A stretch of DNA of 63,930 nt, filler included, from Atractiella rhizophila (GCA_021432655.1; 4 parts of 4 records of this genome joined end to end with filler, not necessarily neighbours in it), one strand, 5' to 3'; numbered from the whole stretch's first letter, positions 1 through 61,953 are shown. The notes: a model not told the origin generated them from the letters alone. Numbers and translations are program-made.

Positions 1-66
1 AAGATTGTAGGAGTGGAATATCATTTATTTTCACATTTACTATGGTATGAGCCTCGAAAGAAAATT

Positions 67-2208
67 TTACGGCTCCAATCTACTGGGGTCTCTCGGGAAC
101 AAACTTGTTCTTCTAATGTTACCCAGCTTCAGGAAGAGCATAGTGATCCTCTCCAGTCCTATATCATCAACACGTCATGCATTAGCGCCAACGCAAATTG
201 TGAAGTGAACTAGACCGTACCGAATCCAGCACCGGCATGGGGGGGAGCACCCAGCTCAAAAGCGTCCACGTAACCCTTCATCTGCTCCTTCGAGATCCCG
301 ACCTTCTTCATCTGCTCCACCAAAAGGTTCGGGTCGTGCACTCGCTGAGCGCCAGAACAGATCTCCTCCCCGCGCATGAAGATGTCGTACGAGTTCGAAA
401 GTAAGGGATTGGACGGGTCGGGCATGGTGTAGAAGGGGCGGATGGCGGAGGGAAACTTGTCGATTATGTAGTAGTCCGTTCCGTATTTCTCTTTCACAAT
501 CACCCCGAGAGCCTTCTCCTGCTCCGTGCTATCCAAACCATGTCAGCATAAGTAGTGAACTTTCTGCGAACACACTTCATGTCGTCGTAGTCCCCAATCT
601 GGTAACCCTTCTCCCTCAACAACGCTATGGCATCCTTAAACTCCAACCTCAGCGTCTCCTCAAGCCACGTAAACTTCTCGTGTGGGAACTGCTTTGCGAC
701 CACCTCAATCTCCTTAGCGTACTCCCTTTGTAGCCCGACGAAGATAGATTTGAGGAGGTTGTCAAGAAGGTCAAGACACTCGTGATAGTGTGTTTGGAAG
801 GACATCTCCAGATCGAGACCCGTAAATTCCGTGAGGTGACGATGCGTGTTTGAGTTCTCAGCTCTGAAGACTGCCCGATTTGTCACAACATGAAAGGAGG
901 ATAGAAGGCAAGAAGCGAACCAGGGCCAATTTCGAACACTCGTTCCATGCCACCTGCAATGCACATCTGCTTGGCAAGCTGTGGTGACTGGGCGAGGAAA
1001 GCCTTCCCTGTGCTTCAAGAGTCAGTTTTGTCATAGGACCAAGAAAGTTAGCACACCGTCGAAATATTTGACCTCGAATACGCTTGCACCGCTCTCGGTA
1101 GCAGCTGCCTGAAGTTTCGGCGTGTGGATCTCGACGAAACCATTCTGCCTCAAGAACTGCTGGAAAAGCCATGTCACGCCAGAGGTGATGCGGAAGATGG
1201 CTTGGTTCGTAGGGCTCCGAAGATCAAAGACTCGATTCTCAAGCTGAGTGTGTTGCGTGACACGAACGAATTTGCTGTCGTCCTGTACTCCATATAGTTG
1301 AGCAAGCGAGGAAGATCAAGCGTACGAGGGAAAAGCACCTTCTCAAAGTCGGTTTCAGGGCGGATGGAGTCTTCGAGCACAAAGGGGAGTTGTGCTGGTG
1401 CCTCGCGCTCGATGAAAAACTGCACAAATCAGAATAGTGTACATGTCATCGGAATAATGGCACACTTTGTCGACAATGATCTCCCGGTTCCCAACGGTAC
1501 AGCTGTTGATTTCAATCTTCGGAATCTGGACCGTCCCCTCGACATAGACGATGGACTCGATCGCTGTCGAATCCGCAAATTTAAGCATGTGCTTTGAGAC
1601 GGTCTCAGGAGTCAGTGTAAGGATCGCTTGAACCGTTGAAAGACCCTGGCGCAAGGTGAAGAATTTCATCTTGGCTCCTTGGAAGCAAAGTTTGTTAAAT
1701 ATGCTCGATTTAGGTGAAAACAGAGCGAACCTTGCGACCGCAGATTCTGAACGTAGGCACGTAGATGTACTCTATCTCCATCTTTGGTTGTCTCCGGAAG
1801 CTCTGAGATATTATTTCGAGACTGAGCTGCTCAGATCCATCAGTGATTGGCCACGCTCGACAGTGGAACACGTACACAGCTTCTCTGTGCTTTGGTTCAG
1901 AGGCAGTCGTCCGTAATTTTGTGAGGCGTAATCCTTCACGCTCTCAGCCCAAGCATTCTGCATAACTAAGTAGGAGCTCACAACATCAGCAGCCTCTCTA
2001 GCAGCCTTCTCAGCTGCTTCCTTGGCCTCACGCTCAGCCTTCTTTCTCGCCTTCTCCTCCTCTTTCGCTCTCTTCTTTAGCTCATTCTTTGACAGTGGCT
2101 GACCATCTTCCCTGCACTCCACATCACATCGGTAACTGAGCTTGCATAACCTGACACATACCCTAGAATGGGAGTTGCAGCTGGTTGGGCTTGCGCTGCT
2201 GCAGACAT
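67..2208 (-). CDS. DPS1: Cytosolic aspartyl-tRNA synthetase (multi-exon)
   Basis: Exon translations: N-terminal K/E-rich helix ([21 protein letters not shown]), OB-fold ([13 protein letters not shown]), motif 2 ([23 protein letters not shown]), [29 protein letters not shown], motif 3 (PPHAGAG..GLER), C-terminal [14 protein letters not shown] at 2208, stop at 67-69, many short GT-AG introns. Confidence 0.96.
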
Positions 2209-2877
2209 AATGGATCGCGCTTGAAACGAGCTGGAAAGGGAAAACCTCGCAGATCTGTATGTGGTAGCAAAACGGCAGGCTGGGGAAACGCGTTTTATAA
2301 TGGTACAAGTCGAATCAGCCAAGATACGACGGTAGAGCATGCAAGTCAGTTCGACTGGGAAGATTTTGACGGGCCACAGGGTAGGGTTAGGGCCATTTGA
2401 AGTGTAATGCGTTCACCTTCACCTCCTGTTTCTCTCCCGTTTTGGTTGTATGAGCATTTTCACGGAAATTTAGGATTTCAACTCGCTAGGCGTGAATTTG
2501 AAGCCATTCCGAAAATGTCAAGCATTTGAAGGTGTGTGCTCTGAATATCTCAGGGACTGCAATGTGATGCCCGTATTCACAATTTGAATGCAAGTTCTTG
2601 ACTCTCCTTTCTTCTACTCAAGCTGGCCACATCTCTCTGCCACGAGCAAGGCGATTGTTCTATGACGCTACTCCACGGCGACGCCGCGCCTTTCAAATTC
2701 CAAGTTGTACAGTCGATCTGAAACATGAGATGAACTGCCACGGGGACAATGTGCTACTGGATAGCCAGATGAATCGGTTCCAACAAAACCGAAAGAGTGT
2801 AATGCGTGCATAGTTAAGTCAGTGAAACAGATCCAATGAAGCCATCATGATAATTCAGTTTCTAGTGTGACTGTATT

Positions 2878-4347
2878 TTAACTCCGCCTTGCTCCCCCTT
2901 TTTTCAACCAATCTTGGTATGGAACCAGCATTCTGTCCTTCGTCCCTTCCCCACGTTCAAACCACAGATCCACGGTTTGACCTCGTGCATAAAAGATCTC
3001 TCTAATGCTTTCCATGAAAGGTCCTGGTCCTCTAGAACCATAACCGTCAACTGAAACCAAGCCTAAAACAAGCTTTTCCAAACCGCAGGCGAATTTCGGC
3101 GCAGTTTTCTCGCTCGTTAGCAAGTCGAGCTCAGGTTGTACTCGATGATCGTCCCATGTACAATAATGGAGTGTCAGGTGAAAATATTTCAAGGAAGGAG
3201 CCAACAACTTGAAAAAGAATACGGGTCCGGGTGTATCGGTCCACATGGTGTTGATTTCGAGTGAAAGGAGACTGCGACATGACTGGATGATGTCTTGCAA
3301 GATGCGACAAAGGAGTTCTTGATTCCAAAGCCAGTCCTCATCTCCTTCATCATAAATCCAAAAAAAGTTTCCAAACCCGTCATATTCTGCCCATTTGAAG
3401 CTCAGCTCCTTCAATTGCTCCCCAAACTTCAGAAATGGCGCTGACCATATCTTCTCGTCGTTCGTGTCTCGTGCAGTCTCGCCGATGATGCGCGTATCGA
3501 GAAAATGAAGCCTCGAGAGGAAAGGAGAAAGTGAAAGGATGTCTTGAAGATCTGTCGGTGCAATTCGAGATTGGTAAAGCTTGAGACAGGTCAGAGTCTC
3601 CGTGAGGAATCGATTGTTTGCGGTGTTGAGACGAGAAACAATCTGTGGTGAGCGAAAAGATCCAGGTGTGCTGATGGAGGAAACTTGACGGAAAACAATC
3701 GTTGGGCAATGTGAGTGATCGAGCATTCCAAACACTGAGTTGATAATAAGGGCATCACGCACTGAAACTGTCCCAAATTCTAGAAGTTCGAGTTTCGGCG
3801 TTTTCGATGGGCAAAATAAATCACAGATCGACGGATCCAGATAGACTGCAGGGGGCATTGATACCATTCGAATACCTCGAAGCGAGTCGCTGCAGAGTTG
3901 GATAATGTCTGTAATCCCCTTCCTCCAATTTTCTATTTGTTTTCTACACTTGCTCCTGTTGTCTAGCTGCGCGCTGTTCAAGTTCTTTGCTTTCAATTCA
4001 CAATCTACCCTTTGCCGTTCGTATCGGCTCTCTTGGATAAACCTTTCGTCAAAGTCCGAGGCTCGTGGAACGAAAAGTATTTCACGAACATAGTGGGCAA
4101 GACTTGGTTTTGCGAGAAGGGTTGCGTGAAGTGTGCTGAGCTGGAAAGTGCTTTGAATGAACGGCTTCTTAAAAATGAGGGATTGACAAGCGGAAGCAAA
4201 TAGAGGCGATAGAATAGAGAGAGAAGATATCCAAGTGACAGAGTTGAGAGATCCGTGGCGCTTTGAGCGCCGCATATCAATTGAAGCGAGCACCAAAATG
4301 TGAACCATAATTTCGAGAGGAAGGTCATGGATTGGGCAAGTCTTCAT
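2878..4347 (-). CDS. F-box-like/LRR-like hypothetical protein, 489 aa
   Basis: Uninterrupted ORF. N-terminal IHDLPLEIMVHIL resembles an F-box start, followed by Leu-rich LxxLxL segments. Confidence 0.65.
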   Translation of the reverse strand: MKTCPIHDLPLEIMVHILVLASIDMRRSKRHGSLNSVTWISSLSILSPLFASACQSLIFKKPFIQSTFQLSTLHATLLAKPSLAHYVREILFVPRASDFDERFIQESRYERQRVDCELKAKNLNSAQLDNRSKCRKQIENWRKGITDIIQLCSDSLRGIRMVSMPPAVYLDPSICDLFCPSKTPKLELLEFGTVSVRDALIINSVFGMLDHSHCPTIVFRQVSSISTPGSFRSPQIVSRLNTANNRFLTETLTCLKLYQSRIAPTDLQDILSLSPFLSRLHFLDTRIIGETARDTNDEKIWSAPFLKFGEQLKELSFKWAEYDGFGNFFWIYDEGDEDWLWNQELLCRILQDIIQSCRSLLSLEINTMWTDTPGPVFFFKLLAPSLKYFHLTLHYCTWDDHRVQPELDLLTSEKTAPKFACGLEKLVLGLVSVDGYGSRGPGPFMESIREIFYARGQTVDLWFERGEGTKDRMLVPYQDWLKKGGARRS

Positions 4348-5344
4348 ACTAGTGGTTCAGCAGATAATCAGCTCATTGGGTTTGGCTGTGAATTAGGACT
4401 AGGACTCACTGTGGTGGGACTATCCTAGGCTTGAAATCAGACCTTCTCAGGGGAGGGCCAAACTTGGTCATGGTTTCGAGGTCAGGGGCGGCAAATAACA
4501 AATTCTCGTCTTTTCAATGTGGAAAGAGGTGGAATCAAGTTATTTAAGGAGGAAGAAATCCGCAGCAAGTTCCCGAGTCATTCGATCATTAAAATGCAGG
4601 ATTAATATTATTAATAATGCCTGCATCATGCGTCTAGATGCACGATCTGTCTCCCAACAAAACAAGCAAATGCGCTAACGAAGGCCAAGCTACAGATACA
4701 TGACTTCCTCTTGAAGTCATAGCAGTTATGGGGCATGCGGATTGTGACTGAGTTCGGGAGTCCTAAAAGCCCAGGGAGCAAGTTGCAGCGACAATGATAG
4801 CCTCAACAGGTTTCCTGGAAGAGATTGAAGCCCTGAGGCAAATCTCCTCACGAGAGGATGCGCCTCGATCTTTCACCATCAACTAGTCTCAACCATAAGA
4901 AAACGCTTTAACACGCTCCTACTGCCCTCGAGCCTGAGAATTGCGAAAGACAACCTGATGGCACGAGTTCTTGATAGCGTGAGATACAGAAAGGACTATC
5001 GTAAAAAAATTATGCCGCAGCACAATATTTTTGATCAGGTTGGCGATATCAAACGTATATCAGGTGTTCGCAGTCAAGCAGAATGCGAGACACTCATCAT
5101 CGAGTAATAAGCGTAATTATGGCATGAAAAATGGTTAGCAGGATCCCTACCTTTGACTCAAAAGAACATCACACTTCGCGACCTAGTACTCAGCACCATC
5201 AGCCTTAATAAGCGCACCACATAGCACCCCTACATCCACTCGCACAGCTCTGCCGCTCACTCAGCGCTCCATCTCGCCGACTTAGGCTTATCCGCTCGTC
5301 CCCCTTAAACCACTTCTCTTCTGTATAAATCTACAGCCGTCCGG

Positions 5345-5952
5345 TCATATCATCCCAAATCGTCGCAATATTTTAACCAAGAGAGATTGTCTCAAAAGAG
5401 TTCGTTCAGCAAATATTCGCCCATTGTGAAAAGAACGAGTGGGACGAGTTCTGCACGTATCTCGACCCGGATGTACGCTGGTGAATAAATGATGATAAAG
5501 AAGATGACTACACCCACACTGGAATATATGTTGGTATCAAACATCAGTCTCTATTCTAGCTCTTGGTGCAAACGAAACTGTCGGGACAGAACGTGGCAAG
5601 CTGGAAGGAAAAGTCGGCGTGCCATCGTGGGCAAGATTGAAGGATGGGGTGAATACGATGAAATCTCAAGCTTGAACGTGAGCCTTTCCTCATCTTGATG
5701 CGAATATGTGGCTGAGGATCGTCTCAGGTGTTCGGCAACCTTTCTATCGCGGAATGCGTAGGAAACGCAACACAAAAGAACGGACAGCGTTACAAAAATA
5801 CGCGCCTCTCTTGCTCATTGAGGAGCGTGGACTGATGGGTTGGCGACGCAGATTCGCTTGGTTCTTGATGAGGAGACGGGAAAGGTGAAGGAAATTACGG
5901 AGTATATGAATACTGATCATGTGACAGATTGATGAGGAGTAATGAACCTTGA
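5345..5952 (+). pseudogene. SnoaL/NTF2-like protein, apparently disrupted
   Basis: Fragments IVSKEFVQQIFAHCEKNEWDEFCTYLDPDVRW, IAECVGNATQKNGQRYKN, FAWFL and DEETGKVKEITEYMNTDHV fit a SnoaL-like fold. TATAAAT at ~5324. No clean ATG; frame break between FAWFL and DEETGK. Boundaries approximate. Confidence 0.55.
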
Positions 5953-6295
5953 AATCTTCTGTAGGACCTGTGGTGTCGAAGACGACTTGTAGAAAGTTAT
6001 ACAATTTAAGGGGGAGACTGAACAATCGCTCTTAAGTGGTGCGTAATGGAAATATATATCATAGGACGCCTTGCATGCCAAAGTTAGCCAATAGCAACTA
6101 TCGCTGCGTATTATTATTCACAAAAGTCACTCAACTCTACAGTTGAGTTGGAGATACCAGTTCTATGTTCAAGAGTGTTAACATTACAGACAGATGAAAG
6201 AAGTGCCTTTCAACATTCATAGAAACTACACAATCGTCAAGTTGACCTATCAAGTTCTTCTCACTCCATGTCACGAAGTGAATGACTACGATTGC

Positions 6296-7674
6296 GTCTG
6301 AAGTTAACCGTGGAAACTCTTTCGGCAGGTGACCTGATGGTTACACGCAGGAACTCTATTTTGCCGTCAGGTCTCCTGCTTACCACCAACATGCAGGTTT
6401 GGACTTAGCATTTTTCCTTTGGCGAAGGGTCGTGAGGTTGTAGGGTTAGGGTAGTTTTTGGGCACCCAAACGACATCGACGATCCAATCCAACGAATATG
6501 CCACAATCTTACTCACACATCCCTCTCCAAGTCATACACCCACCTCATAATGCCTCTCAGGTACTCCGATGTGTCTGCTGTGAAATCCGCTTCGTAATGG
6601 ACCAATACTGGCGAAAGTGAATGAAGAAAGATATGGGGTTTTGTGCCAAGCAGGAGAAGATGCTCAACGACAGAGTGAGGTGGGAAACCGCTGAAGGTGC
6701 GTCGTATGCTCGTTAGTGGTAGGGAGGAACAGGAAAATTGGGTGGCACACAGCATCGAAAACAGTGGTGTGGCGACAATGCTTCGACTTGCATCATTTCT
6801 GGTGAGGAGAATTCCGATGAGACCAACAAGTTAGTATAGGGTTCCTTCTATGAATGTTCAAAAGACAGCTTTGTTTTGCCTTCTAATATATTGGGGGACA
6901 GCAAGACAACCAGCCTACCTTGAACGCTCAAATGCAAGGTCCTCCACATCAACAGTGTGATAGCTTGAAGAAGCATGCCCGTGTTATTGCTACTTAATGA
7001 TGTGGAAGAGAGGCTCGATTACGCTCTTGGAGGGGAAAGATCGTGGCAGTTCCGAAGGTTAATGTAAGTATCTTCTTTGTTTGTTCTCTTCTTGGTTCCA
7101 AATTGCACCGGAGACTGATGAGATGGAACTTTGTTAGGTATCTTTTACATGCTCAGAAGGTATGCTTTTCCTTTGCTTGAGTGATTTCTGGCCATGCTAA
7201 TTGCTTATGAGTCAGGGAAATAAATTAGTATGTTCGCAAGTATGATTCGTGAGTAATCTCTATCGCATCGGATGAAGCTGGTTCATGAGTCAACCAAGGA
7301 ATAATTTTGGGTCTGATAAGGATGAGTTACCACAATTATATGACACTAAATAGTACAATGCATTCGTAATCCCAACATAATCCTCACAGGTGTCCCAGTG
7401 CATTTAAGAGGTGTAAAGAAACCGGGGAAGGGAGGAGCTGTAACCAGTGCAGGAGTTTACCATCAGGTACGCGCAGGTCCCCTGCCACCAGCCATCAGGT
7501 TCTTGCAATATAGCTGATGGCTGGCAGCAGGCCACCTGACGATTGGACAAATCGCCGCAATCAGGTCGCCTGATGGAATTTCAGCAGGTAGCATGCTCGT
7601 AACCGGAAGGTCGCCTGCTGATTTTAGCGGCAGGCCACCTTCCGAAAAGCTTTCTTCGGTGAGTTGCTTCAGTG
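6296..7674. mobile_element. Degenerate non-autonomous TIR DNA transposon, possibly CACTA/CMC-like
   Basis: Imperfect inverted ends: left CTGAAG..TTCGGCAGGTGACCTG versus right reverse complement CACTGAAG..TTCGGAAGGTGGCCTG. Seven subterminal CAGG-N3-CCTG palindromes or near-matches at 6326, 6368, 7474, 7528, 7562, 7607, 7631. No transposase recognised. Confidence 0.55.
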
Positions 7675-8483
7675 ACGGTCGACATGGTTAAGACAGCAGT
7701 ATTGTCGGCAGAATTCGGAATAAAAAACAAGACTGGCTGATAGAAAGTATTTCACAGGCATTGTGCTTGCAAAGAGAGTGTGAACATGCTTGCATATCAC
7801 CACAGCTGAAGGAGAGAACCCGAAAACTCTCACCAAAGAGCCTTTCTCAGGCTCGATGTTTGCCTCACTAGCACCCAGAAGCCTCCAATTTATCTCCCTG
7901 TCAAGTTCTCAGGCTGATCGGGTATCTAGTGGCATCCCGCTTGCGACGGAGCCGATGCGGTCGGCTTGACCTTCGGCGAAATTTTGGCACTTTCGACTTC
8001 AACCCTTGTCAAGTTTGGTTTGGAGTTTGGGACATTTTGGGATGATTCTGGCAGGATTAGGGGAAAGTGGGAAGCCGCCCGCTCGCAAGTGAACTGGCTG
8101 AGTGGCTGCGCAAACAACAACGACTGATTGTGAGATTTGGGACAGGATTTGGAGCAGAATGGGACTTTTGGGACTGTTTCGTTCTCATTCGCTAGGCGCG
8201 CTGAGATCGACCCGACGTGGTGAGCATTTCTGTGGTCAAGTACAGGTACTCGCTGAAGCAGCTTGAGAGGCAGCATTCCGACGCAGACTGGGACTTGCAT
8301 GGCAACACTTTTTCTTTGCAGCTCGCCAGTTTGGGCTAGGTTGTCTTCTGGCATAGGCGGAATGGAAGTCTTAGACAAGAGTGTATGCTTAGGCTCGTTC
8401 CTTCCATTGTGAGTGATTTAGCTAATTCCGTCTCGCCCTGACCTGAGCGGACTTGTGGGTCAGGAAGATGTCCTGGAACCCTT

Positions 8484-8973
8484 TGTTAGGGCTAACACTA
8501 TGTGCGGTCGCCGATAGGCGATGCGTCTGTAGTGGAGGTAAACCTAAGAGAATGATATGGCGTGAGAAGACTAACCTGTAGTGGAGGTAAACCTAAGAGA
8601 ATACTCTGAGGTCACCCCCACTACATCTCGATGTATATATACATAAGTAAAGGCACTGCCATAAACTGTAACATAGGTTACTTGAAACGTGTAAGATAGC
8701 TAGATCAGGAAAGTAATAAAGGGAATACTCGGAAATAAGATATACTGGGTAGTACTAGTGAGAAAGGACAATAAGGCGAAAATGGAGACGGTGCAGACCG
8801 GCGAAATGTATAAGGTCCGCTGAGCGGCGATTCGTGTGAGGAATGGAAAAGCGGCGAACAGCGCAGACCCCTGCAGAGCGGCGATGGGTAGGTACGTGAT
8901 CACATGACACGGTAAGATGGGTCACGTGACTTCGGATGGTGCATTTCGGTAATGCGTGGGGGCAAGCCTGACA
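8484..8973 (-). repeat. 3' LTR, 490 bp
   Basis: Ends TGTTAGG...CCTGACA (TG..CA, 6/7 inverted match). Directly preceded on the minus strand by a G-rich tract. The second LTR is not in view, so identity and TSD (candidate CCCTT, 8479-8483) cannot be confirmed. Confidence 0.8.
8527..8602. repeat. 27-bp perfect direct repeat inside the LTR
   Basis: CTGTAGTGGAGGTAAACCTAAGAGAAT at 8527-8553 and 8576-8602. Confidence 0.95.
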
Positions 8974-8990
8974 ACACCCCCCAAATTCTT
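8974..8990 (-). other. Polypurine tract (PPT)
   Basis: Minus strand AAGAATTTGGGGGGTGT directly abuts the LTR start TGTCAGG. Confidence 0.7.
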
Positions 8991-9098
8991 GACTGGCGTG
9001 CTTGAGTCACGGAATTTTTAGGTTAAGGTTTGCGGTTAGTTGGGGCGAAGATTTTTCCCAGTTCTTCCACCATCTCCCGCTCTTCTTTTCGTGTAAAA

Positions 9099-10614
9099 AT
9101 GTCAACCGACGCACAACTCTTCGACTTTGTCCTGGCGAACAAGGATAGAAAGGAGAGCACAGTTTACTGGGATGTGGAGAAAGCGAAAGAGGTGAATTTC
9201 GGGCGATTTGCCGATGTGTTGGAGTGGGGGAAAAGGTGTTATCCTCTGTATGTCACATTTTGTGATGAAGTACAAGCAGAGGTAGGATTTCTTGTCTTGG
9301 ATGGTATGGTTGGGTGTATGTGGTGACCCGTCGGCGGTGGGAAAGGTGCGAACGGTTTATGAGTCTGCGAAAGGGTTTGGTGATGGGCGCGTTTTGTCGT
9401 TCCCGCTGCGGATGTCTGTGGAAGACATGCAGGTCTTGCGGGATGATCTTCGGCTTTGGGTGGAACAAGCAGCGCTCGTCGAGGAAGAAGCGGCGAAATT
9501 CGGGTTTCAGCCCTCTGAATCGGCGAATGGGGACCCCGTTTTGCGAAGGAAAGAACGAGAACTTTTCTTGTTTGACACGAAAAAGCGTCTGGCGAAAGAG
9601 GAGGAGGAACGAAAACGAGCGGCGCTCGAAAATAAGCGCCGAACGGCTGAGGAAAATTTACGCGCTCAAAAATCGATCTCAGCGGCGAAGGGGTCCGAGG
9701 TTGGGGTTGTGAGGGCGTTGTCTGACCATCTGGTGACTGCTACTACTTTTGTTTTGCCTGCTGCATTGGGGGACCGAAATCCGTTCGCCGGTGCGCCAGT
9801 CGCCGAATTTGTAGTGCGCGACGGGAAAGTTCGAATAGGCGACAAGGAATTGGACGCATCGAAATACAGATACTTTTGGCCAGGTACTCGCGATGCCTAT
9901 TCTCATGCTGCTGCGAACATCAACTTGGGCGAATTGGACCTTGAATTGGTTATCACGACTCCTCGGGCGAATGCCCGTATTCTTCCCACGTTGGCAAGCA
10001 TCGGGACGCAACGATGTAGTAACTGTACCGGAAAAATTCGAGCGGCGCCTGTCAAATCGGCGAAAAAGAAGGCCAAGGCCGACAACGACTCTCAGGTGTG
10101 CGACTTTTCTGCTGGGCACGTCGCGACCGCATTCGGACGGGTTTGTTCGCGTTGTCACAGTTCGCGAAAGAGGTGCGAGGTTTTGCCTCTGGGATATTTG
10201 CGAGAGCTATCGATGTTAGTCGTGATGTCGACTGCGTTCCACCCTAAACGCATCGGCGATGGGAAAAAACGTCCCTCCGCTGTCGCTGAGAGCAACTACG
10301 AGAACCTATCGGACGTCGACGAAGACTCTCCTGCGCATTCGATGCTTAGCGCCGCTCGGTTGTACTCCGAAGCGTTCAGCATGAACTTCGCGCAAACGAT
10401 GCTCGCGGCCGCCAGGTTGAATGCTCAAGCAGCGGCGGATGCTCTTAAGGCCGCCGAGTTGCAAATGGAATTGTATAGAAGGAGGCAGGATGATCGTGCT
10501 GCGGAGGATGGGGCTAGCGAGGGTTCTGTGCTGGAAGGTGTGGTAGCCGATGTGACTGGTAGGGTGAGTCTACCTGTTTTCGGCGATCCGTCTGACTATC
10601 TAGATGTTGTTTAG
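9099..10614 (+). CDS. Retrotransposon-borne antisense protein (~483 aa) with coiled coils and a Zn2Cys6-like six-cysteine cluster
   Basis: AAAATG start at 9099. Exon 1 (9099-9281, MSTDAQ..VQAE), putative 64-nt phase-0 intron 9282-9345 (GTAGGA..GGTGAC..AAG), exon 2 (9346-10614) in frame. C-x2-C-x24-C-x14-C-x2-C-x6-C at 10015-10176. Confidence 0.75.
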
Positions 10615-11221
10615 GCATCGTAGGGCACCTAACTCTTCGCCAGTTGTACAAAAGTCGTCGCATCGGCGAAATCGAGTTTCGACTCGGCGACTTAAAACCT
10701 TCGTTGGCTCAGGAGGCCTATGACAATTCCAATTATGACGTGTATTCTGTTTCTGCTTCGAGTAGTAGTGATAGTGAGGAATCCATTCGGAGCGGCGATT
10801 TTGAACTTTGAAATATATGTTTTGTGTCTCCGTATTAGCGGCGAATAGCCAAGCGGCGACAAGGGTAAACCGTGTCATGGTGGCATAAGGTATTGTGGTG
10901 AGTGGGGAGAACAGTGGCAAAGTGGGTGATGCAGGACTCACACTCCCCTGTCTAGGGGAGGACCCTCAGGCGTTCCTCCCACTAGCTACCCAAGCTTATT
11001 ATGGAGCTCGCAACCAAAATAGGCCTGGGCCACGCGTTCGTGGACACAACGCGCAGTATAACATGTCGGCGATTTGCGTGCTCGTCGCCGGTCTGTCTCC
11101 TTTGTGGAAGAATGTGTTGTCGAGCGAACAAGGATGGGGAAGCAAAAGGTAAAAGCAAAAAATAGGAAACAATAATCATCAAAACCAAAACAGAGTGGAG
11201 GATGAGGGGAAGTCGTTGTGT

Positions 11222-11661
11222 ACCTCGCAATTGAGGGATTTTTGAAGTTTGACCGGTATTGTTTTGGTGCAGTAAGCAACCGTTTGTGAAAATGGGGTGA
11301 GTAACTCACCGACAAACCGGTCGCCGATCTGTCCGTTAAGGAACAGACCGGCGCCTCGCTTAGACCTATGTTCAACAGTGTAACTAGGGATTCACCCAGC
11401 GAGGCGTATAGAGGAGTAGGACCTCTTAAAGTGATGGGGAGGGGACCTCGTGATTGAGGGCAATTTTCGTAAATGCGACATTGGTGATGGTGCGAGAACG
11501 CAATGAGCATTCGTCCTTGACGGGCAACGAATGGACTCACCAACGACCAAGTCGCCGACTTGTCCGTTGAGGAACAAGTCGGCGCCTTGCCTCGACCTAA
11601 GTATCAAAGACTAGGATTTCACCCGGCAAGGCATATAGGGGTGTTGGACCCCTTAAAGTGA
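11222..11661. repeat. Two diverged tandem copies (~11222-11434 and ~11445-11661) of a multi-stem structured element directly 3' of pol
   Basis: Same order of stems in both copies with compensatory changes, e.g. GCCTCGCT/AGCGAGGC versus GCCTTGCC/GGCAAGGC, and AGAGG/CCTCT versus AGGGG/CCCCT. Confidence 0.8.
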
Positions 11662-14600
11662 GGAAGGCCCTTCAGCACGTTTTCGTCGAAGGTTACGAAA
11701 ACGCGCATTTGGGCGATTTTTGGCGGAGTTCGGTATGGGGTCGGGACGAACTGCGAGAGGGTGTGCAGTGTGATAGTCTTTTATAGCATCTTGTGAATTT
11801 TCTAGTTCTGTGATGTTGATCCACTCGTCCTCAGATGGTGAATACCCTTTATATTGAACGCGATATGTGAAAGCTTTCTTTCGGGTACCGAACCACTTCC
11901 CATCTACTATTTTTTCTACTTCCCATTCCTCAATTCCATTCACCAATTCCGGAGGTGGTTTAGGTAACTGGATTCTGCCAGGGATGTCGTCTCTGTTGAC
12001 TTTTCGTATTAGGCCCACATGGAACACTGGGTGTATCTTCCATGAGGGTGGTAACTCGAGTTTGAGGTTGAGAGGACCCAAAACTTGCAGAACTCGAAAA
12101 GGGCCATGCCATTTGTCGTCCAACTTTTTCACCGGCCTCGTCGACTTGATGTTTTTCGCACTCAACCAGACGAAATCGCCGACGTGGTATTCGGGCGCCG
12201 GTGCGCGTTTCCTGTCATAATGTTTTGCCATGAGGTCTGCTGCTTGCTCGAGTGCTGCTCGTGCTTCTCGGTCGGCGATTTTCATCTTCTCGACGAATTG
12301 TGCTGCTGCTGGAACGTCTTCGTCGGAGATGGGTTCAAAGGCCATGCGTGGATGTTGGCCACAATCGAGCGAAAATGGAGTTACGCCCGTCGCCGAACTG
12401 ACGCGATTGTTGAGCGCAAATTCTGCGTTGGGAAGTCCTTCCACCCAATTATCTTGAAGGTGATTGCAGAAAATGCGCAAATATTGTTCAACCTCTTGGT
12501 TCATGCGTTCAGTCTGACCATCACTTTGCGGGTGATAGGCTGTCGATGGTGAACCTTTGATACCTAATAGGCGAAAAAGCGCGGATGTGAATTTGGACAC
12601 GAACTCTTTGCCTCGATCGAAAATTGCGACATCGAAAAGTCCATGCAACTTCCATACGTGATCGCGAAAGAGTCTTGCAAGGCCTTCTGCATCCATCGTC
12701 GAATGGGTGGGGATGAGATAGGTGCGTTTTGAGAGTCTGTCTACTATGACGAAAATCGTGTCGAACCCCCCAGATTCTGGGAGTGGTCCAACCAAATCCA
12801 TGCTGACAATTTGCCAGCGACGTGTGGGAATGTCATTTGGTTGCAAAAACCCGACAGGTGGGGAAGGAAAGTTTTTCGTTCTGTGGCAAGTGTGACAGGC
12901 GCCGACATAGCGGCGAACGTAGTGCGCTAAACCTGGCCACCAATAGTACCTTTTTACTAGAGCTGTCGTCGATTTTACGCCTGGATGACCGGCGATTTGC
13001 GAATCATGTAGGTCTTGCAAAATCGAGCGGCGAATTTCATCGTCGCGGGGGACGTAGAGTTTTCCGCGAAAGTAGACAGCACCATCGACTTCTTGCCACT
13101 CCCGCCGGCGAATTGCGTTGACTGGTTCGTCAAGGATCTCTCTCAAGGCTTTGACTACTTGTTCTTCTCGTTCAGGTACCTTTTTCACGCGTTCCAGTAT
13201 ACTCAACTCCGACATTTGTCTAGTGAGCGCAACCGCGCTCCCAGTCGCGTTGATCGTGATACGATCCGTGTTGAAAAAGCGTTCTGGGAGTAACACTACA
13301 TCAAAGTTGTCGCAAGTCGTCGGTTTGTGATCCGGTCGCCGACTGAGCGCATCTGGTTTTGCGGAGTTCCGCCCAGGACGGTGTAAAAGTGTGAAGTTGA
13401 AAAATGCAAGTTCAGTGATCCAGCGTGCCTGTCGGCGATTCAACTTCTGCGGCATTCTGAAATACTCAAGGTTTTTGTGATCGGTCAAGATCAGAAATGG
13501 CTCATCAGTACCCTGTAGAAGGTGTCTCCATTCTTGCAGTCCCCGCATAATCGCGAGCATTTCTTTGTCGTAGGTGTCATAGTTCCTCTGGGCAGCGTCA
13601 AGCGATTTTGATACGAAACCGAGAGGATGAAACTTCCCATCTGGTTTCATTTGTGACAAAACGGCGCCTGTCGCGAAATTTGACGCGTCGACTTCGAGTA
13701 AAAATCGTCCTATTTGTTCGGGATGTGCCAAAACGGGCGCCGAAATCATGAGCTGTTTCAAAGCGGCGAACGAACGTCGTTCATCCACCCCCCAGACCCA
13801 GGAAATCTCTTTTTTGGTTAGTTCATATAAAGGTCTTGCGATGTGACTAAATCTGTCGCAAAAGCGGCGATAGAAATTAGCGAAACCAAGGAACATTTGG
13901 ACTTCCTTCATGTTTTTCGGTTCCGGCCAATCCATCACTCCTGCAACCTTTACTGGATCCGGTTCGATCCCTCTGCTGGTAATGATCAATCCTAGATACG
14001 CTACTTCGCTTTGACACCAGACACATTTCTGTAAGTTAACATAAAGCCCATTTTCGCGCAAAATTTGACAAACTTCTCGAACGCGTTCCCAGTGTTCTTC
14101 TTCAGTTTCTGTCGCAATTAGGATGTCGTCAATGTATATGAAGATGAACGCAGCGGCGATCATCGCGCGGAAAATAGAGTTCAGGAAAGCTTGGAAAGTC
14201 GCCGGTGAGTTGCAGAGCCCGAAATACATTACCAATGGTTCGAAAAGTCCTCGATTTGTGCGAAACGCCGCTTTGTGTTCGTCTCCTTCTTTGATACGAA
14301 CGTTGTTGAACCCTTTCCTCAGATCAATCTTGCTGAAAAACTTCTTACCAGAAACCATGGAAAAGAGGTCAGCTTGAATGGGGAGTGGGGTCTTATCTTT
14401 GACTGTGGCTTCGTTCAGCTTTCGATAATCGAAAAGAGGACGAAGTTCGGAGGAGTCTTTTTTGTGCGTGAAAAAAACAGAAGCTCCATGTTCACCTGTG
14501 CTAGGACGTATACGACCCGCGGTCAGTTCGGCGTCAATGAATTGGTCGAGCGCCGCTTGTTTGTCTTTTTTCAGGGGGTAGACCGGGCCCGCATATGGTC

Positions 14601-15446
14601 GTGATTCGGGTATGAGGTTGATCGCGTGATCCCAAGGACGTCGGGGAGGAAGAGAAGTTTTGAATTTTTCGTCGTCGAAAATGTCCGCAAAATCGGCGAT
14701 TTGCGTTGGTATTTCGACGACACTTCTTGGTCTCATCGCCGCTGCGTCCTTCGCCAGTTTCTGCGATTTTGTCATAGCGGCTAGTATCAAGGTCGACGAT
14801 GGCGGGAAGTGTTCGCGAGTGGTAGACACGTCATCTGCATTGCAACTGGTAGGGCAACGAGAGAACTCAACTTTCCCTGAGTCCCAGTTGATCTCTGGGT
14901 TATGGTGTCTTAGCCAGTCGTGGCCCAGAATCATGTCGACAGTCCCTAAGTCTGCTACAGCGAATTGCCAAACCTCATGGTGAGCGGCGATCGAAATGGG
15001 CAAGTAAGTGACAGAATGGATGGATCCACCTTGATTGAGAGATCCGTCGATGTTATAAACAGGTACTGGGGAAGGAAGTTGAGTGACAGGTAGGTTGTAC
15101 GCAGAAACGAGTTTTGGAGAAATAAAAGAAGTAGTTGCGCCGCTGTCGACGAGCGCCGATGTGGCCTGTCGGCGATGGGAATGTGGATGGTGGAATGCGG
15201 TTCTGAGCTTCGTCTTCGAACTGACAAGAGATGCTGTTGTCGAGCGTAAGTGGACTTTGTCGTACATTTTCGCGACTTCTGCGCATCTTTGCCTCCAGGA
15301 GGGAAAACGCAATTTCGGGAATGGGGAGTCTTGCTCAGACGGGGGGAATACTGTGCTGGGCGGCATTTTGTTGGAAGTGATTTTAGATGACGTAAATGAA
15401 TTGCAAGTCGGCGATGGGGACACTTCTTCCACCCACCACCGTCCTA
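11653..15446 (-). CDS. pol: Gypsy Pol polyprotein: protease, RT, RNase H, integrase, chromodomain
   Basis: Open 1259-aa frame with ALVDSGAT (protease), YIDD (RT), EVDAS..NYDTYDKEMLA..TDHKNL (RNase H), H..H..CHTC plus the SMDLV/FDRG/QTER catalytic core and GPF (integrase), and EEWEVEKIVD..YKGYSPSEDEW (chromodomain). Confidence 0.97.
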
Positions 15447-15453
15447 AAAATCC
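15410..15453 (-). other. -1 ribosomal frameshift signal (gag-pol)
   Basis: Slippery G GAT TTT (15453-15447) just before the gag TAG. pol is in the -1 frame. Stem GGTGGTGGG/CCCATCGCC starts ~6 nt downstream. Confidence 0.75.
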
Positions 15454-15953
15454 TCCTCAAGATCTTTCGATTGGGTAACACTCGTTTTCGGCGACTGGTC
15501 AGCGAATTGTCGTTCTTGGTGCATCATTTTTGAATCAAAATATTCTCCTTGAGCTCGGAGATATTGCTCCTTGTTCATAATCGTTCTACACTCCCTTTCC
15601 CGGTGTCCTATCTTTTGGCATCGTCTGCAACGGGGAGGTCTAGACTTTGTCGCGTCGACTTCCATGTCATCGGGATCTTTGGCCCTATGAGCGTGTGGAG
15701 CGGCGTTGGGTGACGGATCGGCGACCGGTGACAAGGCGGCGCTCGGTCGATACGATACGGGCGTTCTGTTCTCTCTGTGCTTTGAGGATTTTGAGCTGTC
15801 CCTTTTTGCAGAAAACGTATTTTGTGGTCCGTCTTTCGCCGATGGGATGTTTCGAAAGAAGGTTGAATGAGCAGATTCTTCCGCATCAATTCGCCGAGAT
15901 TTTTCTTTCCAGTCTTCCAGCGATTTTGGGAACTCTCCTTGGGTTACTTTGAG
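15444..15953 (-). CDS. gag: Gag C-terminal part (truncated by gap)
   Basis: DPDDMEVD motif, then the CCHC knuckle CRRCQKIGHREREC, ending EEDF*. Confidence 0.88.
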   Translation of the reverse strand, partial: LKVTQGEFPKSLEDWKEKSRRIDAEESAHSTFFRNIPSAKDGPQNTFSAKRDSSKSSKHRENRTPVSYRPSAALSPVADPSPNAAPHAHRAKDPDDMEVDATKSRPPRCRRCQKIGHRERECRTIMNKEQYLRAQGEYFDSKMMHQERQFADQSPKTSVTQSKDLEEDF

Positions 15954-16033
15954 NNNNNNNNNNNNNNNNNNNNNNNNNNNNNNNNNNNNNNNNNNNNTTA
16001 ATTAATTAANNNNNNNNNNNNNNNNNNNNNNNN

Positions 16034-16396
16034 NNNNNNNNNNNNNNNNNNNNAGCAGGGTGTGGGGAGGATTGGAGGCGGGGAGGGAGGAGAGGAGGGA
16101 CTCGGCTGCAGAGGTGTTCGAGTTGTAATTTAGCAGGATTGTCGCTCCTTGGGCGGCGAGGGTGCGTGAAATCTATGAACCATTGTCAAGTCTCGCAGAA
16201 GCAAGGGCAATAATGGGCTTACAGCTGCTCCAATCCCCCTGAAGGATGATGTTGATTCAGTCGATACTAACATGACTCGTGGAAATTGCTTACCTCGATC
16301 CACCGGTTACTGTGTAATACAATTAGAGATAGATTTTGAGTAAAGCTAGAAGGAAGACCTACCAAGCGCAATCTTGCCAGCGAGTACAGTGGACAT
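16034..16396 (-). CDS. Short-chain dehydrogenase/reductase, 5' part (rest in gap)
   Basis: Spliced reading [41 protein letters not shown] gives the TGxxxGIG motif, split across two 16-nt exons. Confidence 0.85.
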
Positions 16397-28809: not shown

Positions 28810-31408
28810 GAACCACATCCTGATCAAATTTATTCATCCAAGTATTGAGAAATGTGAGCGAGATGAACATGTGGAGATAAGTTCTTTGAGGGCGAACCAC
28901 CATTCCATGGACAGTTGTTTGAGTGGCCATTCACGAGCACATGCAGAAAAGCAAGCGATTTGTTATTGTTATACTGTTACAGGTGTTACAGACTCAAAAG
29001 AACTCTGAGCCTATCATGCTTCGGCTGCAGGACTCACACAACGTTCACGTCAGAGGTGCTCGCGGTTGCTTGAGCTTATCTATAATTATCCAATGAACCG
29101 CTGAGCTTTCGAGTTTTCTGGAACAGGTTGCTGCTATACCCTCCGCAAAATCTTGTGGCTCGCAACATCTTCTTCTGTCTTGGTCAATGGTCGGACGAAC
29201 TCACTGTTACTCCTTGAGGATGGTATCAATCGTGAGCTCTCTGATCAGGGAGTCATGTCGTGGGGAAGAGCTGCTCATCTTCGTATCGGGAAACGGGCGA
29301 GTTCTATGAAAACTTGGATGCCTTTTCGAGGAGACCAACAACCTTGGATGAATGTTCGTCCACAAAACTTCCTTCACGTAAGAAGGTCATGAACCTAAGC
29401 TGTTGTCCTGCCGAATTTGTCATTCTCTGAAGCTTCGTAACATTAGAAAGCGGCATCGAGGATATCGTTGCCTACCGATTTGATCAAGTTAGGTCCCACC
29501 TTTTCAGATCCCATAAACCACAATATAATAGTGTGAGATCTTACTCAATCATGGCAATGGATAAGTGGTGGACGCTGGAGCTAGAACGTGAAGCGGGTAA
29601 GGACGGAAGAAGGCAATCAAGACTGCATGAAGCAAAAGAGCTTTCTGAGGCCGACAGACATGGCCAGACAATGACAATAGACGTCTGTTGTCCGAACAGT
29701 AAAGCATCACCTTTCCCTTTTCACAAGACTTGATTGGCTTCAAGTTGATTGACAACTCACGGTAGTTTCGGGGGATCGCTAGCACTACTGAAGCTGTGCC
29801 GCTCGATAAGAGGGTGCGAGCTTGAAAGTGGATGCTGGATGCTGTGGAAACTACTGTGGGATATTCTGGGCCTTTGGACCAGCGAGTGGCGGTAGAAGGT
29901 TTTGAAAGTTTGTGAAGAAGGCCCGGGGTGGCCGATGACCGTGAACCAGCACAACGTACATCTTTCGAACATTCCCATCTACCAAAGCTTCGTGTAGAAC
30001 CAATGTATCCTTCATTCCCAGGGATGGATCGTGCATAGCTCCAAGCTTCAACGAGTTCGAGAACTAATCCGTGTCATGGATCCGGGCTCAGGAGAGGCAC
30101 TGTACCAGGAAGGGAATCGGAGCTGCTGAGTGAGGTGGAAGGTGAACGTCTCTAAGAGTACTGTCTTTCAATCCTCTTATTCATTGGAGTTTCTCTTGCT
30201 TGCTCGTGGGATCCGATGTCTGTCCTCCTCGGCTCGCCAGAGACCCACTTGGAGATTCTGCAGTATCTGAGTGACGGTCTCTTGAAACGATCAGAGAATT
30301 GTGGAGGCGAAAGTGTGGAGTTGAGGCTCGGCTGACTGATCCAATCCATTTCCCCAGCTCTGTTACCAGCGCAGCAAGAATGCTTGCTCGGGAACCATCC
30401 CTTCTCACCCGTATTGCGTTACGTTGCGCTCGTCAACAGAGATCGAGAGGAGCACGAACACCTCCAAAAAAGCCTGCAACGAATACGCAACGCCAAAAAA
30501 GGTTCACTGCATGCCAAACCCGATCATTCTCAAACTTCAACTCATTCAGCCATTCTGGCATCTGAAAAACAAATCTGAAATTTGGAAGCTTTCCACGAGC
30601 CAAGGCTTTGTCGGGTTCAATCAGCCTTACTTCCAATTCAGAAAAGCTCGAAACCAACTCGAACTGTCCGAGGCTCCAAAATGGTTGAATTTGGGCGTTT
30701 GTTATTTGCGGAGATGGTTTCGATGGTATCACGCATGCTGATTTCATTCAAGGACTGTGGCTGCGGCAGTCCATAAGTGGAATCTACGAGGAGNNNNNNN
30801 NNNNNNNNNNNNNNNNNNNNNNNNNNNNNNNNNNNNNNNNNNNNNNNNNNNNNNNNNNNNNNNNNNNNNNNNNNNNNNNNNNNNNNNNNNNNNNNNNNNN
30901 NNNNNNNNNNNNNNNNNNNNNNNNNNNNNNNNNNNNNNNNNNNNNNNNNNNNNNNNNNNNNNNNNNNNNNNNNNNNNNNNNNNNNNNNNNNNNNNNNNNN
31001 NNNNNNNNNNNNNNNNNNNNNNNNNNNNNNNNNNNNNNNNNNNNNNNNNNNNNNNNNNNNNNNNNNNNNNNNNNNNNNNNNNNNNNNNNNNNNNNNNNNN
31101 NNNNNNNNNNNNNNNNNNNNNNNNNNNNNNNNNNNNNNNNNNNNNNNNNNNNNNNNNNNNNNNNNNNNNNNNNNNNNNNNNNNNNNNNNNNNNNNNNNNN
31201 NNNNNNNNNNNNNNNNNNNNNNNNNNNNNNNNNNNNNNNNNNNNNNNNNNNNNNNNNNNNNNNNNNNNNNNNNNNNNNNNNNNNNNNNNNNNNNNNNNNN
31301 NNNNNNNNNNNNNNNNNNNNNNNNNNNNNNNNNNNNNNNNNNNNNNNNNNNNNNNNNNNNNNNNNNNNNNNNNNNNNNNNNNNNNNNNNNNNNNNNNNNN
31401 NNNNNNNN

Positions 31409-31955: not shown

Positions 31956-32055
31956 NNNNNNNNNNNNNNNNNNNNNNNNNNNNNNNNNNNNNNNNNNNNT
32001 TAATTAATTAANNNNNNNNNNNNNNNNNNNNNNNNNNNNNNNNNNNNNNNNNNNN

Positions 32056-47572: not shown

Positions 47573-48049
47573 AAACTTGCAGAGAGGAGAGTGAATGAAG
47601 TAAGAAGGGATCAAGGAAGTGTAGAGAGTGGAGCTAAGCGAGTGGGAGCTGATAGCAATAAGGGAATGTGTCAGTTTTATTCTGCTGATGGAAACCATCT
47701 GGCCACTGTTTTAAAGAATAAAATGGAAATTGTTCATGGCCGCAAGCCAGCCAGAGCAGCTTCAAGCAGTTTGAAGCATGCAGTGAAGATGTATGTTCAT
47801 CTTCAGAAGCCTCATAAGCCTCCACCGGAAAAGGGAGATACTCGTTGGATGGCTGACGATGTTAGTAAAGCAAAGCAAAGGAACCTCCACTGCGGCTCCT
47901 ACTTCCTGGGCATCTGGAATGCTTCTGCTCACGGTCATGAAGAGGCACGNNNNNNNNNNNNNNNNNNNNNNNNNNNNNNNNNNNNNNNNNNNNTTAATTA
48001 ATTAANNNNNNNNNNNNNNNNNNNNNNNNNNNNNNNNNNNNNNNNNNNN

Positions 48050-60400: not shown

Positions 60401-61953
60401 NNNNNNNNNNNNNNNNNNNNNNNNNNNNNNNNNNNNNNNNNNNNNNNNNNNNNNNNNNNNNNNNNNNNNNNNNNNNNNNNNNNNNNNNNNNNNNNNNNNN
60501 NNNNNNNNNNNNNNNNNNNNNNNNNNNNNNNNNNNNNNNNNNNNNNNNNNNNNNNNNNNNNNNNNNNNNNNNNNNNNNNNNNNNNNNNNNNNNNNNNNNN
60601 NNNNNNNNTGAACGAGAACACCGTTCCAGCGGTGTTGCTGCTCGTGCTTTCTCTACTAACGGAAAGTTGAACTCCATCGTCAGGGTCTTAGGCTATGTGG
60701 AATGTTTTCAGTTCATTTTTCTTCTAGAGAGTAAATGGACATACAAAATGGAAACGCAGACTACTACTTGAGCCCGAAATGATAATGAAGATTGGTTGTC
60801 GATACGATGGTGAGGGGATATCGAACAAGAAGAACGGAACAAAGGATGGGGCCGCAAAGGCAAGGGCGACAACAGTGAGGATGCCTTTGTTCCTAAAGCA
60901 TTGTTCCCTGTCCTGGGAGCGGAAGGAAATGCTTTGGCATTCTGCATTTTCTAGCATAGGAAGGAAGGAGAGAAGATGGAACTCGTCGGAAAGAACTGCC
61001 AACACTGACTCGAAGCATGGGAGCATGGAGAAGAGAAGAACGAAGAGCTTGTCAAGCTCTAAGACATCTATTCCTTATCCCAAACATCAACATGAAGTTG
61101 CTAGTAAACTTCACCAGTGCATGAAGCATAGCTTGCCTTGAATAGATTCAATATGCAATGAAGCCCCGAAATGATAAGCGACGGAAATCTGTAGGATGGG
61201 ATTTGGCCTTCCCCAAATGACCCTGGCGTCTAAACTTGCGCTTTGTGATCTTGTATCTGCCAGTAACGTTGAACCAATGAGACCTGGATGTATTGCCTGT
61301 GTTCTTGAAAATACAACAATACACGTGACAACAAGGACAGTCCGCAACAATTCATTTCAATTCAATTCTGAACATTGGAATTGGAATGTCGTGGAACCGA
61401 TGACCCATGGTGACAAATATCTTGGCTCTCGGTAGTCTCCAGCCATCACTCCCACTCCAACAGTCTTTCCTTTTTGTTACTCGTTCTGAGTGCACACTGT
61501 CTCACACATAACCCGCTGTTTATACCAGCATACCCTCATGGAGTCACAGAAACATTTTACCTTGAGTGGCCTCAGCCAGTGCTTACTCATTATCTTCCTT
61601 CTAGAAATGTACATAGGCGGAAGGATCGGTTTCGCTCTCCTTCATGAAGCTAAAGCTTCAGTAATACGTACGTTGCCAACTGTCTTTGCAGACAATGCTC
61701 AGAATCTAAATGTAGAGGAGAATCCAAAGCCTCTGGTGGCCGAATGGACATTCATGATCCGGCTCTACGTGTTCCACGACTTCTTACGAGTCTGCGCAGG
61801 CATTTCAAGGTATGCTACCCAGTTTTTTACTTTACTTCATCTTGAATAGGATGTTCTGCAAGCATATACTTTCTATTTCACCCCAAACGGCGCAATCCCA
61901 GCGTTCCCCCTTTTATCTTCGCCTTCCAATTCTTTACCTCCTTCCTAGCAACT

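Follow-up and report, generated by a model that had tools for sequence, protein, structure and literature searches.

A retrotransposon of the fungus Atractiella rhizophila, located at 8484..15953 of the window (that is, the whole stretch of 63,930 nt that was analysed), was shown to have gained one 15-bp site at about 44 independent places, against coding constraint, and sister families were shown to have gained other words likewise. The element is a Ty3/Gypsy chromovirus (Metaviridae) on the minus strand, and in its coding regions it is the choice of synonymous codons that produces the site. A gene antisense to gag and pol, which the element carries beside its 3' long terminal repeat (LTR), was shown not to be required for such an accumulation of words. 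The interpretation that we favour, as a serious possibility still short of probable, is that the 15-bp sequence represents a binding site at the DNA level, whose putative reader would be a host factor that reads CGG or a core protein of the element.

The dispersed site and its enrichment

8484..15953, no strand assigned: dispersed site C-N-N-A-K-CGGCGA-H-N-N-G, 44 copies (31 with CGGCGA on the plus strand and 13 on the minus strand)

A previous interpretation of this DNA, hereafter the sequence-only reading, had proposed a self-regulating element that encodes a zinc-cluster protein and carries a CGGCGA motif along its entire length. It reported about 44 copies of CGGCGA/TCGCCG in the element and about 5 in positions 1-8483, for some 3.6 expected per element at equal base frequencies. 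A pattern search returned exactly 44 copies starting within 8484-15953, out of 69 in the window, and 5 copies in 1-8483, and the expected value is arithmetically correct. The enrichment also proved to be element-wide: each of the five parts into which the element was divided contains 4.6-8.7 sites per kb (5.9 per kb for the whole), against 0.25-0.59 per kb in the four stretches that make up the remainder of the window. The non-coding parts contain 6.1-8.7 sites per kb, and 25 of the 44 sites fall in pol or in the open reading frame (ORF) at 9301-10614.

The excess is not explained by dinucleotide composition, as 1000 dinucleotide shuffles of the element gave 5.15 ± 2.22 copies, with a maximum of 13, against the 44 observed. 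Codon-preserving shuffles likewise fell short of the observed counts, both for pol (3.10 ± 1.63 against 17 sites, a number reached in 0 of 2000 shuffles) and for the 9301-10614 ORF (2.50 ± 1.41 against 8 sites, reached in 1 of 2000). Markov models of order 1, 2 and 3 predicted 2.8, 3.9 and 11.8 copies of CGGCGA on the plus strand, where 31 are observed, and the two orientations are enriched separately (31 and 13 copies for about 2.8 and 2.5 expected, respectively). Moreover, CGGCGA has the highest z among the 4096 strand-specific hexamers of the element (z 16.9), most of the runners-up being hexamers that overlap it; in host chunks of the element's size, the z of the top hexamer is only 5.3-7.6. 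CpG is not depleted in the element (observed/expected ratio of 1.20). No tandem-repeat structure was found beneath the sites, the sole regular array being one of four sites in the LTR.

The complete site amounts to about 13 bits and forms an imperfect palindrome centred on the third base of the core (TCG-G-CGA). The flank preferences were obtained by aligning the 44 sites of the element on the core and comparing them with the 25 chance hexamers found elsewhere in the window. They consist of C at position -5 (29/44 in the element vs 3/25 outside), A at -2 (29/44 vs 6/25), G or T at -1 (38/44 vs 10/25), any base other than G at +1 (44/44 vs 18/25) and G at +4 (27/44 vs 4/25). The variable flank positions showed no covariation, being complementary in 11/44 sites for 11.8 expected and in 11/44 for 11.5 expected. 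The dispersed sites are therefore not hairpin-like, and their interpretation as conserved hairpins was rejected.

In pol, too, the site arises from codon choice. The 17 sites of this gene are spread over several reading frames and specify different peptides (I-A-A/D/G, x-R-R and others). Half of the [IFVL]-Ala-Gnn tripeptides of pol (6/12) are spelled xTC-GCC-G, for 0.94 expected, and 6 of its 12 Arg-Arg dipeptides are spelled CGC-CGN, each of them preceded by a codon ending in T. As for variation among copies, differences between the element and the contigs of sequencing runs were considered at the best-supported 40 of about 1000 variant places, 38 of which lie inside the element. None of these 38 listed differences hits the core of the motif, for 1.3 expected, a number too small to inform on conservation.

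Words in related chromoviruses

A search with pol as query provided 90 loci of related chromoviruses, with 36-49% identity, in contigs of metagenomes and IMG/VR; we analysed the 78 that were at least 3 kb long and contained few Ns. CGGCGA was enriched in none of these 78 loci (maximum z of 2.6). Some of them have a CG-containing word of their own at a comparable density, such as GCGGAA in L002 (34 copies for 3.8 expected), CCGGAG in L004 (25 for 3.7 expected) and words of the CTCCG or TCCGGA type in L003, L011, L056 and others. The top word reached a z of at least 9 in 11 relatives, being a CG word in five of them, a low-complexity word (TATATA, GAAGAA) in another five and CCTGCA in the remaining one.

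Codon usage was controlled for by shuffling the longest pol ORF of each relative 1000 times with codons preserved. The observed counts were never reached for KCGGAA in L002 (34 vs 7.0 ± 2.3) nor for CGGAG/CTCCG in L003 (47 vs 11.2 ± 3.0), L004 (28 vs 9.0), L006 (20 vs 7.8) and L056 (11 vs 3.6). They were reached in 1 of 1000 shuffles for L009 and in 10-18 of 1000 for L011, L017 and L082, whose ORFs are short. In a tree of the reverse transcriptase (RT)-RNase H region, based on the 14 of 91 loci (the window element counted) that gave a clean segment, a single supported clade is characterised by the CGGAR load, two of its members, L008 and L015, being without it. The words fade in CpG-depleted relatives, and in one of these, L051, the top words TGGAA and TCTGG are the expected CpG-to-TpG derivatives.

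All 16 relatives with a resolvable structure are compact and none fits an extra gene. Seven of them have LTR pairs, with 84-650 bp between pol and LTR (2,679 bp in the window element), and the other nine, L002 included, consist of circularly collapsed units of about 5.4-6.05 kb. The unit of L002, of about 5.75 kb, holds 86 CGGAA sites and leaves no room for a 1.5-kb gene. The expectation of the sequence-only reading that motif load would track the antisense gene was thus partly contradicted: relatives without the gene have comparable loads, but of other words, which makes the link between gene and motif doubtful.

The antisense gene and the structure of the element

The Atractiella chromovirus is young and apparently intact, save for the 5' end, which was lost at a contig break. 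Its parts are the following.

8484..8973, minus strand: 3' LTR, 490 bp, reading TGTTAG...GACA on the plus strand, with ends TG...CA
8799..8884, no strand assigned: array of four CGGCGA sites in U3, with spacing of 26, 27 and 27 bp
8974..8982, minus strand: polypurine tract (PPT), GGGGGGTGT on the minus strand, immediately upstream of the 3' LTR, as read from the sequence
9099..9281, plus strand: antisense gene exon 1, 61 codons, MSTDAQLFDF..., the N-terminal extension of family members from other copies
9282..9345, plus strand: probable intron of the antisense gene, 64 nt, GT...AG, placed by the gene models of other copies and the reading frame
9346..10614, plus strand: antisense gene exon 2, 422 codons and stop, with a conserved central block, a KKKAK basic patch and six Cys
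10615..11652, no strand assigned: spacer separating pol from the antisense gene; its 9 motif sites amount to 8.67 per kb, and it includes the tandem duplication described below
11313..11362, minus strand: hairpin B, spacer unit B, -28.8 kcal/mol, z = -4.04, folding as hairpin A
11544..11594, minus strand: hairpin A, spacer unit A, -30.1 kcal/mol, z = -4.44, with a 3' arm GTCGGCGAC that pairs with the GCGCCGAC arm
11653..15366, minus strand: pol, 1237 aa, with protease, RT, RNase H, integrase (H2C2, rve, SH3) and chromodomain
15444..15953, minus strand: gag, C-terminal 169 codons, with the stop at 15444-15446 and a frame open to the contig end

The antisense gene had been described as an ORF of 437 aa. 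The gene models of its siblings and tblastn searches indicate instead a two-exon gene of 483 aa, with P0001, P0002 and P0006 matching at 9093/9099-9203/9284 with 90-97% identity. That it would be a real gene was upheld, as it is spliced according to gene models, occurs in multiple copies and shows only synonymous changes among the listed differences between copies (6/6, against 14/26 in pol, in a small sample). Because all six differences are synonymous the gene appears to be constrained, and it looks like a real accessory gene under purifying selection. Summed contig depth is about 4-6 times higher for pol than for the antisense gene, depth not being a measure of copy number, and one contig joint, from 8973 to 11703, bypasses 8974-11702, that is, the whole antisense module. 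Both observations hint at siblings that lack the module.

Six relatives of the antisense protein, with 62-92% identity, were found, all of them in A. rhizophila, and the family has seven members in this species. A profile search against 1.84 billion representatives revealed no relative outside A. rhizophila; of the five proteins that it returned, two were already known, one was a further copy and two matched an unrelated fused part. The latter belongs to the gene model of P0006, in which the N-terminal half of the antisense protein is fused to unrelated sequence that is also found as the separate proteins P0008-P0010, and is probably another mobile element inserted in that copy. P0008-P0010 match only this aberrant C-terminal part of the P0006 model and were rejected as family members. 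A search of metagenome contigs with the antisense-protein pattern gave 382 matches, none of which was confirmed as a relative.

The Zn2Cys6-like cysteine pattern attributed to this protein did not hold. The spacing of Zn2Cys6 domains is C-x2-C-x6-C-x5-12-C-x2-C-x6-8-C, whereas the six Cys, at exon-2 residues 224-277, are arranged as C-x2-C-x24-C-x14-C-x2-C-x6-C, and with gaps of 2, 24, 14, 2 and 6 the second half alone fits. According to the gene models, all six Cys are present in only two of eight family sequences (the window copy and P0001). Nor could the protein be placed among zinc-cluster proteins, since PF00172 (Zn_clus) was not matched by the whole ORF at E <= 0.1 or by the 123-aa Cys segment at E <= 10. 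Pfam searches of the protein matched no family and detected no DNA-binding domain; hits to DUF6720 (E 0.015-0.054) and DUF2039 (E 0.045) were below the cut-offs of these families and were not used. An AlphaFold model had no confident fold (mean predicted local distance difference test score of 40.3, predicted TM-score of 0.26), and long helices are predicted. The best result of a profile search in the PDB had E = 0.26, the proteins being irrelevant. The ESM Atlas gave a best score of 0.82 and a DUF3716 cluster at 0.78, both taken as leads only, with no usable match for P0003.

Just after pol, a tandem duplication of about 227 nt (11205-11434 and 11435-11662) repeats the 3' end of this gene, its first unit overlapping the pol stop. 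When the two spacer hairpins are aligned, hairpin B differs from A by two compensatory pair changes and one wobble change, all of which preserve the fold, and the loop UUCCUYAACGGA is conserved in both. From their predicted folding, it is possible that these hairpins provide the genomic RNA with a structured cis-element.

Viewed in the sense direction, the U3 array precedes a TATA-like box (LTR sense position 333, window 8641) by 160-240 bp; viewed in the other direction, it precedes the ATG of the antisense gene by 215-300 bp. A CACGTG palindrome is found near the array, at 8923-8928, and the R/U5-side half of the LTR contains a perfect 27-nt direct repeat (8527-8553 and 8576-8602, 49 nt apart). 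The LTR edge at 8484 is marked by 25-27 contigs per sequencing run that diverge there into unrelated sequence, and that at 8973 by loose contig ends and one joint. Over positions 8532-8797 of the LTR, summed contig depth is far above that of U3 (8798-9063) and some 400-fold that of the unique flank, which points to numerous solo LTRs or to a segment of the LTR common to other families. Further contig joints lead from the LTR edge at 8484 to 11381 and to 14448 and may reflect nested insertions or a shorter derivative.

Pfam matches in pol include RVP_2 (aa 70-170), RVT_1 (301-462), RT_RNaseH (554-654), Integrase_H2C2 (776-832) and rve (849-946), and the C-terminus of the integrase carries a chromodomain (Chromo PF00385, aa 1148-1199, E = 6.2e-08) above the gathering score. 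The gag gene, upstream of pol, encodes a CCHC zinc knuckle, CRRCQKIGHREREC, at 15588-15629. The pol frame is open 5' of its first ATG (15366) and differs from that of gag, so that pol is probably expressed by frameshift and not from this ATG. Of the landmarks expected for a chromovirus, one LTR and the PPT were seen, whereas the 5' LTR and the primer binding site lie past the contig end at 15953; a search for LTR pairs within the window found none because the contig ends there. The module added between the pol stop and the LTR measures about 2.7 kb (2,679 bp).

The end of the element at 15953 is artificial, being followed by the assembly joiner N44-TTAATTAATTAA-N44. Blocks of this kind, at 15954-16053, 31956-32055 and 47950-48049, divide the window in four, and the resulting segments, each about 16 kb long, look like separate contigs joined artificially. 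Bigger N blocks occur at 30794-31408 and 59823-60608, in AT-rich surroundings. Protein matches assign the element to Atractiella rhizophila, a member of the Pucciniomycotina. No tRNA gene was found in the window, and an Rfam scan of the element had no match at E <= 0.1.

Possible readers of the site

A palindromic footprint of 15 bp, the enrichment of both orientations and the promoter-like array in U3 point to a dimeric reader of double-stranded DNA. We suggest that the site may be a selected, family-specific cis-element, which would offer a sequence-specific and probably dimeric factor a multivalent putative site on the double-stranded DNA of the element. The four-site array would function as an upstream activating sequence, for the sense promoter in the 5' LTR and for the divergent antisense gene in the 3' LTR, while the sites in the body would add small cumulative benefits, for example by copies staying open and transcribed. 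Because relatives that lack the antisense gene have words of their own at equal density, the antisense protein is a less likely reader than a host factor that reads CGG or a core protein of the element. Gal4-type Zn2Cys6 factors recognise CGG half-sites, and all the words found here contain CGG (CGGCGA, CGGAG, CGGAA, TCCGGA), which makes a host zinc-cluster factor a plausible reader. The Atractiella site differs from those of Gal4-type factors in not being a CGG-Nx-CCG pair, and the element's own protein has no detectable Zn2Cys6 domain. As for the self-regulating element that was proposed earlier, its real, element-wide and codon-independent enrichment, its real gene and the array near the ATG have been retained, but not the Zn2Cys6 identity.

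Several points weigh against a protein-read DNA site. Binding to the 15-bp site is inferred from its sequence and the reader is only putative. Among copies of the family, none of the 38 differences considered falls in a core, but just 1.3 would be expected to do so. The steady strand polarity of CGGCGA (13 sense : 31 antisense, p = 0.0096) is unexpected for a symmetric double-stranded site, and CGGAG is rarer than CTCCG on the sense strand in 17/17 chosen relatives with a load. Most relatives are unexceptional, the median z of their top hexamers being 7.2, against 5.3-7.6 for host chunks. The words of the relatives were selected after the fact for their high scores, although the effect sizes are large, and the relatives come from metagenome contigs, many of which probably derive from few genomes. 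Additionally, these words are short and have weak flanks, and they may represent another phenomenon.

The polarity would be better accommodated if the words acted at the level of single-stranded nucleic acid, either as signals by which the Gag nucleocapsid (CCHC) packages RNA or chaperones cDNA in a family-specific manner or through RNA-RNA contacts, an alternative that we consider possible but rather unlikely. UCGCCGA and UCGGCGA are exact complements, and the polarity (31:13 in total) follows the whole element and not the local gene, as its direction does not change between pol (12:5) and the antisense gene (6:2), which is oriented the other way. The direction is also the same in the 17/17 relatives with a load that were examined, but the CGGAA of L002 has no significant polarity (48:38), and in the Atractiella element the minority orientation is strongly enriched too (13 copies vs 2.5 expected). 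Gag bears a CCHC knuckle and is present in every family compared, so that no extra gene would be needed. In two hairpins of the spacer, an arm with the motif is paired with its complement and compensatory changes have preserved the structure, whereas the dispersed sites lack covariation. Known retroviral nucleocapsid contacts are shorter than 15 nt, and the footprint of the Atractiella site, with its symmetric flanks, exceeds them.

An unlikely alternative is that the dispersed site is bound by the antisense protein of the element itself, which would thereby activate its own copies or shield them, in a way similar to VANC proteins or to the regulators of complex retroviruses. The gene is constrained (6/6 listed differences synonymous), has seven family members in the species and adjoins the 3' LTR, and its ATG is preceded, at a distance of 215-300 bp, by the four-site array. 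Its product has a six-Cys cluster, the KKKAK patch and predicted helices that could dimerise, matching a palindromic site, and the Atractiella family has the most elaborate site among the elements compared (z 16.9, about 13 bits). On the other hand, neither Zn_clus nor another DNA-binding family was found, even at E <= 10, the PDB profile search gave nothing below E = 0.26, the Cys spacing is unlike that of Zn2Cys6, and all six Cys occur in only 2/8 family sequences. Moreover, gene-less relatives bear comparable loads of their own words, and the pol/gene depth ratio of about 4-6, which does not equal copy number, together with the joint skipping 8974-11702, hints at siblings without the module.

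The closest parallel to such a system is that of VANC proteins and VANDAL elements in Arabidopsis, in which a short motif is enriched in one TE (transposable element) family and rare in related families, its density being thought to matter more than single sites (PMC5735166). The Atractiella element shares with it a dense motif in its own family that is rare in related ones, an accessory protein encoded by the TE and words that differ between families (PMC5735166). A comparable rarity is seen here in the density of 5.9 per kb in the element, against 0.25-0.59 in the rest of the window, and in the 0/78 related loci with CGGCGA enrichment. VANDALs are DNA transposons whose YAGTATTAY motifs are mainly non-coding and form same-orientation tandem repeats that grow by repeat expansion, whereas the Atractiella sites are mostly dispersed singly in coding sequence, by point changes and in both orientations (PMC5735166). 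VANC binding has been demonstrated by ChIP (chromatin immunoprecipitation) and EMSA (electrophoretic mobility shift assay) (PMC5735166), and for the Atractiella protein binding is predicted at most, the comparison being one of logic and not of protein sequence. By analogy, one might imagine, as an improbable extension, that fungal chromoviruses carry family-specific "address words", short sites of CGG type that synonymous choice has spread over the entire element, its coding regions too, and that would mark the copies of a family for a dedicated sequence-specific reader, and that the Atractiella word is read by the element's own spliced antisense orphan protein, which as a dimer on about 44 sites would drive the LTR and keep copies active, representing an independent retrotransposon counterpart of VANC.

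The position of the antisense gene also has precedents. In the parts of PMC11963269 on which we draw, Retand, Grande and RIRE2 are plant Ty3/Gypsy elements of non-chromovirus lineages with an antisense ORF between pol and the 3' LTR, which mostly carries TRP28 (PF04195) and is suspected of a regulatory role. A long pol-to-3'-LTR region (here 2,679 bp), an antisense ORF (here the 483-aa gene) and tandem repeats are common to these elements and the Atractiella one, but the latter is fungal, has a chromodomain and encodes an antisense protein without TRP28 or any Pfam match (PMC11963269). Those parts of the source describe no element-wide motif in Retand, Grande or RIRE2. HBZ, the antisense gene of the complex retrovirus HTLV-1, is likewise an accessory gene opposite gag-pol, beside the 3' LTR and with an intron (PMC11963269). 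The Atractiella protein differs from it in having no detected bZIP or other known domain and in its fungal host, and it was read from sequence alone.

The absence of any function, with the words as a side effect of mutation bias, of CpG survival that depends on context or of a hidden codon-pair preference, is very improbable: every word contains CpG, the words fade in CpG-depleted relatives (the top words of L051 being TGGAA and TCTGG) and codon-pair usage is not kept by codon shuffles, but the CpG ratio of the element is 1.20, the non-coding parts are enriched (6.1-8.7 per kb), the sites occur in several frames with different peptides, specific flanks reach 5 bases from the core, dinucleotide and order-3 models fail to explain the excess, and the words differ among families.

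Words that run through both coding and non-coding DNA, in several frames, and that are favoured by the machine that reads them are represented by the bacterial uptake sequences (DUS/USS) and by Chi. The Atractiella site resembles them as a short word written through coding sequence in several frames; it differs in that they belong to cellular genomes with a known reader, DNA uptake or RecBCD, while here the carrier is a 7.5-kb retroelement and the reader is putative. Our literature searches, confined to open-access papers, yielded no account of words of this element-wide kind in LTR elements of fungi, and a clade-wide "written-in word" seems to be undescribed so far.

Regulatory sites in retrotransposons are usually sought in LTRs. 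Here a 13-bit site extends over 7.5 kb, at about 6 copies per kb, and is forced into ORFs by codon choice, and sister families have different words in its place. As the site itself, a natural array of four sites and a candidate protein encoded by the element have been defined, the proposal is directly testable. If the sites are read by a protein, they would represent a new mode by which a retroelement is recognised as "self", for activation, anti-silencing or packaging, which, if true, would explain the functional separation of co-resident families.

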